From positions 2,831 to 66,830 of the forward strand of contig JAZDGQ010000007.1 in the NCBI GenBank assembly GCA_043806835.1: a stretch of 64,000 nucleotides of DNA, in the 5' to 3' direction. This document shows positions 15,785-26,249 of the stretch, piece after piece (the first letter of the stretch is position 1; every line of letters starts with the position of its first letter). The notes beneath the pieces are model-generated. The model was given only the letters and a program-made list of their open reading frames with translations. It was not told the origin of the DNA and made no database searches. Source of the DNA: Pseudomonadota bacterium. GTDB taxonomy: Bacteria > Pseudomonadota > Alphaproteobacteria > Micavibrionales > UBA2020. The position numbers and the translations under genes are program-made.

Positions 15785-18700
15785 TCAGAACGTCGGCAGT
15801 TTCTTTTCGGGAGGAGGGGCGGAAGCGTCTTTAGCCTCAGGCCCCTTCTCCAGTATATCATCTATCTTAACCTTGATGGATCCCGCCAGCTCTTCGATGA
15901 GCTGGCTTATCACGGCTCCCGTCGTGGATTTCTCCGCATCCCCCTTGTCCGCCAGCAGCCCCACACGACGGCGGATTTCCGAGCGCGCCGATCCTCCGGG
16001 GAAATTGATCGCCAGCAACCGGCGCGCCTGGCTGGCGCCGAAGCGCGCATAAAGCCTGTCGCGGATCTGCACGTCCTCCGTGGAAGTCGAGAAAGCCCAC
16101 AATTCGATGGGCCCAAGAGTATTGATCAAATGCTGTTCGTAACGACCCTCCGTCGTTCCCAAAACCAGAAGGCAGGGACCTCCGCTGGCTTTCGGTCCCG
16201 TCAGCTTATGGCGGATGATCCAGCGCGCAGTATCGGTCAGACCGAAGCGTTTCTGCGTGTCATCCACGGCGCCGTCGGAAATGGCCGTCCCCAGAACCCA
16301 GATGCCGGTCGCCAGATCAACCATGTCATCGTCGAAATCATGCAGCATCTGCGATGCCAGGATGATCTGAATCCCGCGCTTGCGGCCTTCGCGCACGTCG
16401 CGCACCACCTGACCCCGCATGGATTTCGAACTGCTCGTCCGGTGAAACTCGTCGTAGCAAAGGCGCTTCGGCGTTTCGGCGAAGTCCCGCAGCCGCGCCC
16501 CGTGAAAGGCGCGGTATTTCACCGGCATCTGCAGCAGAGCCTCCTCGTTGATCCACCACGGCGTCACAAGGGCGTGACGCGCCAGCATGTACATAATGGT
16601 CGTCTGGCGATCCGCCGTCGCATCCCCCTGCGGACAGACGTCCGCCAGATCCAGGGAGCAGATGCGGGTCTCGTTGAGAGAAAATCTCGTGACCGACGCC
16701 AGGATCGGGAATTCGCGCACGGAAGACGTGATCATCCGCTCGAAAGCATGAATAACCCCTTCGGAGCTTGTGCCGATGGACGTTTTATCAAGCAGGTTCC
16801 GTATCTGGGGACGTCTTGCCGCCGCCACGGCATCTCCCACCGTCGGCATCGCATAGCGCTGCGCCAGGCTTGCTTCAAAAGTCAGACCCTTGTCAAACAG
16901 GATATCAACGACATCCCACCAGTAGCAGCTCGGCGGCAGCACGATTTCACTTTTGCGGAGAGCCTCATCCACCGTCTGATCGATTCGCGGCAGATAGGGG
17001 CGCGGCTCGGAGTTCGCCATCTTGTCGTCCCGCCAGCGGTACATCTCATCCACCACCATCCCGGACAGCTGGGAAATGCCGTCATAGGGATCCGCCTGCC
17101 CGGGAGGCGTGCAAAGGATCGTCAATATCTCAATCAAAAAGCTGCGTTCCGTGACCTGCGGATAACGCATCCCAAGCTTGGTATCGAAAGGATTGATGGC
17201 AAACTGCTGACTCATCTGCAGACGGTACGCAGCCACCTCATGGCGGCGGTTCGGCGGCAGGGCATCCTTGATCAGCGAGACCAGCCCCGCCGAAGACTGG
17301 CCGATATCGACCACCGCCACAAACGGCAGGCGCGTCACCCCCACGGCAAGACAGGTTCCGAGATTGAGCGTGTTCATCAAGACCGATTTGCCGCCGCCGG
17401 GCTGGGAGAACACAAGATCGAACCAGGTGGTCGTGATGTTGGTTCCCGTCTGATACGGCCATACCCGCCCGTCAGGCGTCCGGAACAGGATGGATCCGCT
17501 GTCGAACGGGCTCGATGCGCGCTGCCACGGCAGCAGCTTCATCATTTCGTAGAGCGGCGCTATGCCGGCCGGAGCCGTGGAAGCGCAGGCTATCCCCAGC
17601 GCCGAGGACATGACGCAGTCCAGCGGATCTCCTGTCAGCTGGGAAATCTGGCTGTACCCCCAGCTTTCCACCCCCTGCACCAGGTTGGACAGCCTCTCTT
17701 CCAGAAGGTCAATGTCGTCTTTGGGCGCCCAGGTGCAGAAAGAAATCCTGAGCTTGACCACAGGTTCGCTGCGCGACAATTCGTTCAGAGCCTCGAGCGA
17801 ATCCTTGATCTGCCTGTTCTCGATATTCGTGACGGCCATGATCGACACAAGGAATGTTTGCAGCCCCATCCCCTGGCTGCCGCCGCCCTCCAGAAGGAAG
17901 GAGACGCGAAACGGCGTATTGCTTTCGGACAGGCGGCTGAGGAGAGCAGGAAACGGCAAAGGATCCTGCGGTCCCAGCACCATATCCACCCCGCCCCAGA
18001 CATATTTGCCCATCTCGACCACATGATCGTTGATGACGCGGGCGGAGGTCATGGCCAGCTGCTGCCGCAGGGTCGGCCACAGCACCTCCGACATATCGCT
18101 CTTGTGTTCCGGAGCGCGGGCGGGAATAGGGTCTCCCGGCAGACACGCCCTCCACCCGCTGTCGGCGGATCCCTGGAACAGGTTGGCGCGAATCGCGCGC
18201 AGCGCGTCATGCACTTCCATCTCGGCGGACTGGATGCCCATTTCCCTCAGCGCCGTGACTATCGCCGTCAGAAAACTTCTGTGCCGCGTCCGCAGGGCTC
18301 CAACGGCGGCAAAAGGATACTGCGCGTCTGCCGCCCTGACCCATTGGCGCTGACGCGACTGCTTGGCTTCCCGCGCAAAATCCGCCTTGGTCAGGATCGA
18401 CGGGCGCGTCCACAGCACGAAATAAATCTCTTCCCACGCCAGGTAATGCTTCAAATGCCGGGCGCGCTCCTCAAAAATATCGTCGATCTCAAGCCCGATA
18501 TTCCCCGCCGCCCTCTGGCTGGGGCGAAGCAGCCTCTGCAGCTCTTCACCAACACGTTCAGGGTTGCGCACGAAATAAACCTGCAACGCATGGCCGGGCC
18601 GGTCAAAGCGCGTCCCGAACTTGACGACGGCATCCGCGAGAATTTTCTTGTATTCATTTTCGCCGATGACCTGACGCGCGCCATCCACGCGAACAAGCGA

Positions 18701-18859
18701 AACCAGCGACCCGTCATCCGCCGCAAACGAAACCTTGTCATCGGAAGTTTCGAGTCGAACGAACGACTCGACCGGCTGCCGAAGCATCTTTACAAAAGGT
18801 CTGAGCAATCCGCCTAAAATACTCACAACAGAATCCTGAAATCCGAAACCAGAGGCCAA
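15785..18859 (-). CDS. icmB: type IVB secretion ATPase IcmB/DotO (TraU-like)
   Basis: 1024 aa. Walker A FSQPGGGKSVLMN and Walker B RLCYDEFH. The size, its last position in an icmL-K-E-G-C-D-J-B-ordered block and the N-terminal ...ESFVRLETSDDK region resemble DotO. Start is TTG 18859 with no clear SD, so the start is uncertain. Confidence 0.85.
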   Translation of the reverse strand: MASGFGFQDSVVSILGGLLRPFVKMLRQPVESFVRLETSDDKVSFAADDGSLVSLVRVDGARQVIGENEYKKILADAVVKFGTRFDRPGHALQVYFVRNPERVGEELQRLLRPSQRAAGNIGLEIDDIFEERARHLKHYLAWEEIYFVLWTRPSILTKADFAREAKQSRQRQWVRAADAQYPFAAVGALRTRHRSFLTAIVTALREMGIQSAEMEVHDALRAIRANLFQGSADSGWRACLPGDPIPARAPEHKSDMSEVLWPTLRQQLAMTSARVINDHVVEMGKYVWGGVDMVLGPQDPLPFPALLSRLSESNTPFRVSFLLEGGGSQGMGLQTFLVSIMAVTNIENRQIKDSLEALNELSRSEPVVKLRISFCTWAPKDDIDLLEERLSNLVQGVESWGYSQISQLTGDPLDCVMSSALGIACASTAPAGIAPLYEMMKLLPWQRASSPFDSGSILFRTPDGRVWPYQTGTNITTTWFDLVFSQPGGGKSVLMNTLNLGTCLAVGVTRLPFVAVVDIGQSSAGLVSLIKDALPPNRRHEVAAYRLQMSQQFAINPFDTKLGMRYPQVTERSFLIEILTILCTPPGQADPYDGISQLSGMVVDEMYRWRDDKMANSEPRPYLPRIDQTVDEALRKSEIVLPPSCYWWDVVDILFDKGLTFEASLAQRYAMPTVGDAVAAARRPQIRNLLDKTSIGTSSEGVIHAFERMITSSVREFPILASVTRFSLNETRICSLDLADVCPQGDATADRQTTIMYMLARHALVTPWWINEEALLQMPVKYRAFHGARLRDFAETPKRLCYDEFHRTSSSKSMRGQVVRDVREGRKRGIQIILASQMLHDFDDDMVDLATGIWVLGTAISDGAVDDTQKRFGLTDTARWIIRHKLTGPKASGGPCLLVLGTTEGRYEQHLINTLGPIELWAFSTSTEDVQIRDRLYARFGASQARRLLAINFPGGSARSEIRRRVGLLADKGDAEKSTTGAVISQLIEELAGSIKVKIDDILEKGPEAKDASAPPPEKKLPTF

Positions 18860-25330: not shown

Positions 25331-26249
25331 TGTCCATCGCTATCCATTGTTCGATACCCACCCCGTTGGGATTTTCCAGCGACGGCACGCGTTCTATCAC
25401 CATCCTGAGCATCAGGCTGTCGTTGCGACTGGCGGCTCCGGACTGGTACGACACACTCAACGGCAAATCCACCACCCAGCGGTATTTCCCGTTGCGGATG
25501 CTTTCTTCCCTGATGATCGGGGCGCTGCGCGGCTGCGCGGTCACCACCTGCTGCCCCGCCTCGACCGACTCCATGATTCGCGACTTCTGCAGCGCGCTGG
25601 TGAACGTCTCCCATCCGTGCCGGGTGAAGTTGCGGGAGGAGTTCTGCATCCGCCGCTGATAGTCATGGAACCCGAACGTCATCACCTCGACCGCCGACTG
25701 CGCCGCCCACGACATCAGAGCGGATGTGGCCATATTGGGGCGATCAAGCGGCACCAGCTGCATGATGCGCCCGTCCGCCGTCGTGGCGAAATAGCGATCC
25801 TGCGATGCGGCTGCATTCATATATACGATGAACGTCAGGATCAGCACGACAATGATGATGGATTCGGCAATCACGATTCGCATCATGTTGCGAAAACCGT
25901 CGCGATAAAATTCATTGCGTATGACCACAGACATCAACGGCCCGCCGGCAACAACCTCAAGGGGAGCAGAAAAAGCGGCCGCACCGGATGTACCGTCCCC
26001 GGACATCTTTTTTCCGCTCGGGGAGGAAGGTTCTCCGTGAACTGCCGCACCCCCGGGTCTGGCGGCACCGGCATTCCTGGAGGGCGCGGAGTTGTTTTTG
26101 CCGCTGCCGAGAATCATGGACGCCGACTTTATCAGTTTCGACAACGGGCTCTCGACCGGCGCAGCGCCGCCGGCTTCCGGCACTGGCACATGCGCAGACA
26201 GGATGTCCCCCCCTTTGTTCTCTGATGGCTCGTCGTCGATATCATCCAT
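25323..26249 (-). CDS. second full-length IcmL/DotI paralogue with ~100-aa low-complexity N-terminal extension (icmM/dotJ position)
   Basis: Residues ~110-308 align by eye with the 211-aa IcmL-like protein (FYRDGFRNMMRIV+TM; ...WAAQSAVEVMTFGFHDYQRR... vs ...WAVQSAAQIMTFGFNDVEER...). The N-terminus is G/A/P/S-rich. Confidence 0.65.
   Translation of the reverse strand: MDDIDDEPSENKGGDILSAHVPVPEAGGAAPVESPLSKLIKSASMILGSGKNNSAPSRNAGAARPGGAAVHGEPSSPSGKKMSGDGTSGAAAFSAPLEVVAGGPLMSVVIRNEFYRDGFRNMMRIVIAESIIIVVLILTFIVYMNAAASQDRYFATTADGRIMQLVPLDRPNMATSALMSWAAQSAVEVMTFGFHDYQRRMQNSSRNFTRHGWETFTSALQKSRIMESVEAGQQVVTAQPRSAPIIREESIRNGKYRWVVDLPLSVSYQSGAASRNDSLMLRMVIERVPSLENPNGVGIEQWIAMDNG

Follow-up and report, generated by a model that had tools for sequence, protein, structure and literature searches.

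Reviews describe the Dot/Icm-type, or type IVB, secretion system (T4BSS) as a hallmark of the Legionellales and allied Gammaproteobacteria and as evidence of adaptation to eukaryotic hosts. What, then, is a block of nine Dot/Icm-like genes in an alphaproteobacterial chromosome, is it part of a working machine, and where does the rest of that machine lie? The block occupies positions 15785-26249, on the minus strand, of a 64,000-nucleotide stretch of contig JAZDGQ010000007.1 (GenBank assembly GCA_043806835.1), hereafter called the window. A preliminary description of the window had read all nine products as Dot/Icm proteins and had proposed that the machine is either split across loci or reduced. 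Here we suggest, with a probability of about 0.8, that the block is the conserved traM-traU/icmL-icmB module of a Dot/Icm-type T4BSS in the core chromosome of a Micavibrio-related alphaproteobacterium.

Identity of the nine gene products

The block is composed of nine intact, co-directional genes, and all of them are open reading frames (ORFs) at the following coordinates, given here with the upstream intergenic region and the main family matches.

25323..26249, minus strand: DotI/IcmL orthologue, 308 aa (PF11393, 3.4e-55; NCBIfam IcmL_DotI_only)
24695..25330, minus strand: second, more divergent DotI-like paralogue, 211 aa (PF11393, 7.2e-35; NF038072, 4e-37)
23433..24572, minus strand: DotH/IcmK, outer-membrane core complex protein (PF12293, 7.5e-72)
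22102..23436, minus strand: short DotG/IcmE, 444 aa (NF033900, 5e-42; TraO, 3e-26; TrbI, 5e-10)
21341..22105, minus strand: DotF/IcmG-like protein, 254 aa (NF038218, 6e-5, below cut-off)
20223..21179, minus strand: DotE/IcmC/TraQ-like polytopic inner-membrane protein, 318 aa (NF033883 TraQ_IncI1, 7.6e-7, below cut-off)
19630..20013, minus strand: DotP/IcmD/TraR-like small membrane protein, 127 aa (DUF6750, 4.3e-7, above gathering score)
18902..19612, minus strand: DotN/IcmJ, zinc-binding subunit of the DotL coupling complex (NF038221, 7.7e-26)
15785..18859, minus strand: DotO/IcmB/TraU, VirB4-family ATPase, 1024 aa, TTG start as called (R64 TraU alignment)
26250..26503, no strand: AT-rich intergenic region separating flgK from the divergent first DotI gene (sequence read)

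The start/stop overlaps of 8, 4 and 4 bases at 25323/25330, 23433/23436 and 22102/22105, which had been taken as signs of translational coupling, are present, and the other gaps are 17-209 bases.

Families were assigned with Pfam and NCBIfam models, a PDB sequence search and orthologue profiles compared with 20 transfer proteins of the IncI1 plasmid R64, whose proteins and gene order were taken from the annotated record NC_005014. The first DotI scored 189 bits against the NCBIfam equivalog (cut-off 175) and is 100% identical to P0121, a protein from an NCBI metagenome-assembled genome (MAG) that is publicly named IcmL/DotI. It has a low-complexity N-terminal extension of ~110 residues, one membrane helix, over which it weakly matches IcmM/DotJ, and a periplasmic DotI domain; in the PDB it matched L. 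pneumophila DotI (3wz4, 4e-27) better than R64 TraM (5e-9). The second DotI is 36% identical to the first and 35-40% identical among relatives, has the lowest GC content of the block (0.47, with neighbors at 0.55-0.60) and is missing from some relatives, such as L116, which has a single DotI. By analogy with DotJ in Legionella, this paralogue may be a partner of DotI.

DotH, which has a signal-like N-terminus (Sec signal peptide), matched IcmK in the PDB (6x62, 1.9e-41) over residues 121-369. DotG combines an N-terminal membrane helix with a VirB10/TrbI-like C-terminal domain, and its PDB match to IcmE (9e-20) is limited to residues 857-1047 of the chain. The DotF-like protein, encoded by the least conserved gene of the block, has a membrane helix, a Pro/Ala/Ser-rich linker, a coiled coil and, at its C-terminus, a conserved domain. 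A PDB search with this one sequence turned up nothing but chance matches to coiled coils; the top match of a profile of 13 orthologues was L. pneumophila DotF (7muc_AF, 3.8e-7).

In the DotE-like protein, the NF033883 match covers the whole model and DUF6750 is matched at 0.002. Its N-terminal module (residues 33-123) is 41% identical to the adjoining DotP-like protein, so that from its sequence DotE looks like a fusion or an internal duplication of DUF6750 units. A profile of 53 DotP orthologues matched only TraQ and TraR among the 20 R64 proteins. DotN matched IcmJ in the PDB (5x1h, 2e-19) and contains the motifs CRYCGF and CAFCQQC, with CxxC pairs at 43/46 and 75/78 plus C81. DotO aligned with R64 TraU over 955 residues (27% identity, E 1e-100) and carries the Walker A motif SQPGGGKS and a Walker B-like LCYDEF. 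DotO matched nothing in Pfam or NCBIfam above noise (Pfam TraC being sub-threshold only), and the PDB sequence search gave no match either; its identity therefore follows from the TraU alignment and from the names of its 1247 homologues, many of which are called IcmB in JGI and NCBI records.

For six of the eight families (DotI, DotH, DotG, DotN and DotO, together with DotP, which found TraQ/TraR), the orthologue profiles matched only the positional R64 equivalent, and the DotE and DotF profiles matched none of the 20 R64 proteins. The calls for DotF, DotE and DotP are weaker, being based on sub-threshold or profile-level evidence plus position. Eight type-I accessory genes in canonical order are clustered with DotO, five with strong model or PDB matches and three with weak ones. 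We also considered VirB-type (type IVA) components, better matches to which had been named as grounds for rejecting the Dot/Icm reading. VirB10/TrbI was touched only by the C-terminal domain of DotG, and more weakly than DotG/TraO; the matches of the other block genes were all to type IVB families. With DotF, DotE and DotP on this weaker footing, the nine product calls of the preliminary description are upheld, and the cysteine pairs of DotN and the Walker A motif of DotO that it quoted are present.

Genomic context and conservation

A gap of 6 bp separates the end of the DotO gene from a convergent DDAH-like gene; at its start, the block is 254 bp away from the divergent flgK. Beyond these, the DotO-side flank contains the end of a glutamine synthetase gene, a gyrB/parE-type topoisomerase gene, accA, xerD, aroK, aroB and a CNNM/CorC gene, and the flgK-side flank contains flgL, PopZ (DUF2497), rnd, radC, map, carB, greA, proS, ppdK and a split pntA with pntB. 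Both junctions and the housekeeping character that had been ascribed to the flanks are borne out. No relaxase family was found in any window ORF with Pfam and NCBIfam, nor in the annotated neighborhoods of relatives. The window holds no mobile-element integrase, its sole tyrosine recombinase being of XerD type, 5 kb off between accA and aroK; no bordering repeats were found around the block, and the sole tRNA, a tRNA-Pro, is 7 kb from it. The borders are therefore as bare as first described.

The G+C content at third codon positions (GC3) is 0.68 in the block and 0.73 elsewhere in the window, a mild deviation. Foreign origin was considered on the basis of composition and rejected, since this GC3 difference and a shift in codon usage are mild and are accompanied by no island-like break or borders. 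A comparison of 15.8-26.2 kb with its flanks, which had been proposed earlier, thus yields a shift without an island.

The nearest genomes, whose DotO is 59-90% identical to that of the window, are MAGs that carry the labels Alphaproteobacteria, Rhodospirillaceae or Micavibrio sp. One relative is labelled Bdellovibrionales because NCBI taxonomy files Micavibrio under Bdellovibrionota; a 2011 genome paper treated Micavibrio as an alphaproteobacterium. The source is an uncultured Micavibrio-related alphaproteobacterium and not a member of an endosymbiont lineage. Of 26 genome loci, ~16 preserve the order of the nine genes, the most distant ones showing minor rearrangements. Both the flgK and the DDAH flanks recur in L010 and L038, the DDAH-CNNM-aroB side is shared with L001, and adjacency to flgK recurs in L010, L016, L029/L030, L038 and L116.

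Compared with L001, the closest relative, the ratio of nonsynonymous to synonymous substitution rates (dN/dS) is 0.065 for DotO, 0.057 for DotN and 0.18 for DotE, and 0.15-0.17 for the flanking DDAH, CNNM and aroB genes. Protein identity to L001 is ~90% for DotO and DotN (DotN 89%) and 76-77% for the three flanking products. DotO and DotN are thus under stronger purifying selection than their housekeeping neighbors, and the block is inherited vertically within the clade. The conserved order and flanks, together with the low dN/dS, indicate a conserved core function, neither a recent import nor a relic.

Location of the remaining machine genes

The other core genes (dotA/B/C/D, dotL/M, icmT and icmS/W/Q) had been reported as absent from the window. 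In agreement with this, the scanned window ORFs beyond the block gave no Dot/Icm model match with Pfam or, for the Pfam-negative ORFs, with NCBIfam. We therefore turned to the loci of relatives, which cover ~20 kb around each known gene and hence a small fraction of each genome, and probed them with R64 proteins and then with the DotL of L018.

In L018, DotM (NF033890, 4e-47) and a TrbC/DotL-type coupling protein (3e-111) are encoded 4-8 kb from DotO. On the 817,858-bp ENA contig NODE_13, the flgK|block|DDAH arrangement lies in 549.5-572.6 kb and DotM, a 168-aa gene and DotL lie in 368.5-391 kb, so that block and DotM/DotL are separated by ~180 kb on the same contig. On the 621,054-bp JGI contig Ga0316205_10000007, the block is at ~350-360 kb and DotL is in the first 17 kb, more than 330 kb apart. 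DotO itself is solitary among housekeeping genes in L002, L013 and L018, and L029/L030 carry the block without DotO.

Among the 78 DotL-bearing loci, 77 of which came from a metagenome scan, dotM-dotL adjoins argS, gyrB and recF in 17-25 (L066, L075, L078 and ~20 more), and some of these also have dnaN (11 loci) or dnaA (9 loci) nearby, that is, a replication-origin neighborhood. DotB is encoded ~9 kb from dotL in three of the 78. The DotB of L089, beside hemC and tsaD, matched the Dot/Icm equivalog TIGR02524 (9e-119) with 397 bits, compared with 233 bits for TraJ. In 57 of the 78 loci, dotM and dotL are separated by a gene for a protein of 165-181 aa that matches neither a Pfam nor an NCBIfam family, for example at the following positions.

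L037, 9460-9966: gene between dotM and dotL
L018, 14176-14625: gene between dotM and dotL
L089, 9400-9906: gene between dotM and dotL

We know of no gene at this position in Legionella. Judging from its sequence and place, the protein could be an unrecognised subunit of the coupling complex or an adaptor.

The system is dispersed through the core chromosome in this clade. Because DotM and DotL lie elsewhere on the contig in syntenic relatives and DotB at a third kind of site in more distant ones, and because purifying selection on the block is strong, a machine split across loci is favored over a relic; between the two options offered at the outset, split or reduced, it is also the favored one. 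DotL, DotM and DotB are likely to be encoded elsewhere in the window's own genome, where the other missing parts may lie too.

Several points weigh against this interpretation. The evidence for DotL, DotM and DotB comes from relatives, the window's own genome being covered over 64 kb. The relatives with block and DotL on one contig have a DotO 69-74% identical to that of the window. DotB was found only in more distant marine relatives, whose DotL is 58-59% identical to the query and which are known here from their DotL-bearing loci. The codon usage of the block differs from that of the flanks, with a relative synonymous codon usage (RSCU) distance of 0.106 compared with 0.04-0.06 for control blocks. 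For M. aeruginosavorus ARL-13, no type IV secretion system was reported when its genome was published in 2011. Finally, the inner-membrane protein DotA, the outer-membrane lipoproteins DotC and DotD, and IcmT were not found in the window or the relatives' loci with very distant R64 queries, and tblastn and phmmer searches with R64 TraI, TraH, TraY, TraK, TraV, TraW, TraX and TraL gave nothing credible in the Micavibrio-like loci. This non-detection of DotA, DotC, DotD and IcmT says little, because the probes are remote and only ~20 kb per known gene was covered. A weak TraK/IcmT match after dotL in L037 was discarded as an antisense ORF inside the PhoH gene.

Alternative explanations

The alternative that survives best, and that we still regard as unlikely, is that the type IVB machine has been reduced or remodelled and functions without DotC, DotD or DotA, with other, unrecognised outer-membrane parts in use. 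It would account for the failure to detect these three proteins and is compatible with the short form of DotG and with conserved genes of unknown family such as that between dotM and dotL. However, non-detection with single-sequence R64 queries over ~20 kb per known gene is weak evidence, and DotH, whose Legionella counterpart assembles with DotC and DotD (PDB 6x62/7muc), is well conserved here.

It could also be proposed that the block is a conjugation apparatus of mating-pair formation type I (MPF-I), belonging to an element, integrated or domesticated, whose DNA it would transfer as in IncI plasmids. The gene order equals that of R64 traM-traU, the best curated match of the coupling protein is the conjugative TrbC model, and the plasmid proteins nearest to DotO are encoded on megaplasmids of Alphaproteobacteria, of which that of Methylorubrum AM1 is typed as MPF_I and that of Bosea RAC05 has no MPF typing. 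We consider this even less probable than a reduced machine, since the window has none of the relaxase, mobile-element integrase, bordering repeats or adjacent tRNA of such an element, the relatives' genes are dispersed among dnaA, gyrB, hemC and flgK with flanks conserved across species, and Dot/Icm models give higher scores than IncI models for DotB, DotI and DotG. Moreover, TXSScan placed Micavibrionales systems in the protein-secreting type, according to a survey (PMC9418006).

That the block is a decaying relic, half of an ancient type IVB system that lost its partners and no longer forms a machine, is highly improbable: although the 64-kb window has just nine of roughly 20-27 Dot/Icm genes and R64 queries located no DotA, DotC or DotD in it or in the relatives' loci, the nine reading frames are intact with a dN/dS of 0.06-0.18, at or below that of the flanking housekeeping genes, the block is retained across dozens of diverged genomes, and DotM, DotL and DotB occur in the clade.

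Proposed function and target

On the basis of homology to the Legionella machine, DotH, DotG and DotF would build the core that spans the envelope, presumably together with DotC and DotD, and DotI with its paralogue, DotE and DotP would form the inner-membrane platform. DotO and DotB would supply the machine with energy, and DotN would dock on DotL-DotM for the recruitment of substrates. The assembled machine is predicted to inject protein effectors into a contacted cell and not to conjugate DNA. Contact-dependent protein injection is the likely function, because there is no relaxase, the genes are dispersed and vertically inherited, and the affinity is to Dot/Icm over IncI, with DotI, DotG and DotB scoring higher against Legionella-type models or structures than against IncI ones.

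Bacterial prey, contacted during epibiotic attack, and eukaryotic cells are both conceivable as targets. Because Micavibrio lives by epibiotic predation on bacteria, prey would be an attractive candidate. On the other hand, ankyrin-repeat and DUF6782 genes are directly beside DotO in 13-14 relatives, and one relative has six consecutive ankyrin-repeat genes upstream of DotI. Such neighbors are found at the following positions.

L027, 13081-14097: ankyrin-repeat/DUF6782 neighbors
L031, 1-9557: ankyrin-repeat/DUF6782 neighbors
L038, 14123-16628: ankyrin-repeat/DUF6782 neighbors
L116, 15889-23015: ankyrin-repeat/DUF6782 neighbors
L037, 14467-15762: ankyrin-repeat/DUF6782 neighbors

Neither the window nor its closest relative, L001, has ankyrin-repeat or DUF6782 neighbors. 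Ankyrin-repeat genes are of a kind typical of effectors for eukaryotic targets; as candidate effectors, the arrays near the block in relatives hint at a eukaryotic target.

A more far-reaching proposal, which we put forward tentatively and which may well prove wrong, is that the T4BSS has belonged to the core traits of the Micavibrio order since ancient times, passed on vertically and with genes dispersed even beside dnaA, and that it injects effectors into bacterial prey. The alternative is that much of the order deals with eukaryotic cells through ankyrin-repeat effectors. What makes the locus interesting is the purpose that such a machine serves in a lineage of predators, and its bearing on when and where type IVB secretion originated. 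The locus makes it testable whether epibiotic predators deliver toxic or digestive factors into their prey or whether the machine serves dealings with eukaryotes. If bacterial prey is the target, this would be, as far as our literature search and general knowledge go, the first case of bacteria being shown as the target of a type IVB system; if eukaryotes are, the image of the order as purely bacterial predators would be overturned. With either target, type IVB systems would become a weaker marker of adaptation to eukaryotic hosts.

Other features of the window

The intergenic region 26250-26503 is likely to contain the promoter of the block. One promoter-like match was found in it (minus strand, 26300-26272), which is no more than chance expectation. 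Within the block, a terminator-like hairpin just past the DotE stop is followed, before DotP, by the best promoter-like match of the region (10/12; together 20129-20224). The block may form two transcription units, with hairpin and promoter counts not above chance.

Opposite DotO, a plus-strand ORF of 895 aa (16130-18817) is an artefact of the G+C-rich coding strand. Similarly, three plus-strand ORFs in 59549-63998 (472, 476 and 389 aa) were rejected as genes: they had no matches and are spurious antisense frames of pntB, both pntA parts and an ABC1 kinase gene. Such long antisense ORFs could pass for genes in naive ORF calling.

On the other side of the block, flgK and flgL (26504-30292) are divergent from it here and in at least five relatives, and PopZ comes next; any link among cell pole, flagellum and secretion machine is speculation. 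Farther along, two minus-strand genes, for an FHA-domain protein and a trypsin-like protease, overlap at 33470-35768. Directly upstream of the solitary DotO in L002, L018 and L025 is a gene for another trypsin-like protease, weakly similar to this one (27-30% identity).

Comparison with known systems

The order of the Legionella genes is icmL-K-E-G-C-D-J-B, and the block has the same nine functions in the same order. Its proteins match the solved L. pneumophila DotI, DotH, DotG and DotN in sequence, and DotF by profile. In relatives, DotB is nearer to the Dot/Icm equivalog than to TraJ, DotM fits the DotM/IcmP model, and there is no relaxase, as in the Legionella system. The differences are, however, considerable. 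The host belongs to the Micavibrio group of alphaproteobacteria and not to the Legionellales. The Legionella genes form two large regions, whereas those of the Micavibrio clade lie singly or in small groups among housekeeping genes, and dotM and dotL are not upstream of dotI. Legionella DotG has 1048 aa with a long repeat region, whereas the window DotG has 444 aa and no such long repeat region; Legionella pairs DotI with a short DotJ, whereas the window encodes two full-length DotI paralogues; and DotE of the window has an extra DotP-like module. Neither the window nor the loci examined showed counterparts of Legionella IcmS, IcmW, IcmQ, IcmR, IcmT, DotK, DotA, DotC or DotD.

With R64, the block shares a collinear order and a DotG of short length similar to TraO. 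The order had been equated with R64 traM-N-O-P-Q-R-T-U; the collinearity holds in the annotated record, but the R64 order there is traM-N-O-P-Q-R-S-T-U, with the extra small gene traS between traR and traT. The window also lacks the relaxase NikB, the thin-pilus pil genes and the plasmid context of R64, and the similarity of its proteins to those of R64 is consistently below that to the Legionella proteins.

Among plasmids, the homologues nearest to DotO occur on megaplasmids of Alphaproteobacteria (Methylorubrum extorquens AM1, Bosea and Rhizobium), with 41-44% identity over the full length, compared with 59-90% for the chromosomal relatives. T4BSSs had been called uncommon in Alphaproteobacteria, but in view of these replicons, DotO/TraU homologues are not rare there. 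In the three megaplasmids inspected (L034 from M. extorquens AM1, L028 and L035 from Bosea), DotO is apart from the rest, as in some relatives, and none of the other eight block genes occurs within 20 kb of it. On the two Bosea plasmids, DotO is near a TraM-recognition coupling protein, a prepilin peptidase and DNA-processing genes; the Methylorubrum record is unannotated.

Using TXSScan, Needham et al. (2022; PMC9418006) assigned pT4SSi, a protein-secreting type I type IV secretion system without relaxase, to seven marine Micavibrionales MAGs. These systems are of the same kind and from the same bacterial order as the one described here. That article covers them in one sentence and a supplementary table, with no analysis of gene content, synteny, selection or dispersal, and no other mention of such systems in Micavibrionales was found in the literature searched. 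Many MAGs labelled Micavibrio sp. carry this system, in contrast to the 2011 report on M. aeruginosavorus. With partner genes scattered around the chromosome, such systems are easily missed. The existence of the genes is not new, since automated annotation and one survey sentence precede this work. The locus thus represents a known kind of machine in an unusual and barely examined lineage, with its own anatomical variations: dispersed genes, a short DotG, two full-length DotI proteins, a DotE with a DotP-like module, and a conserved gene of unknown family between dotM and dotL.

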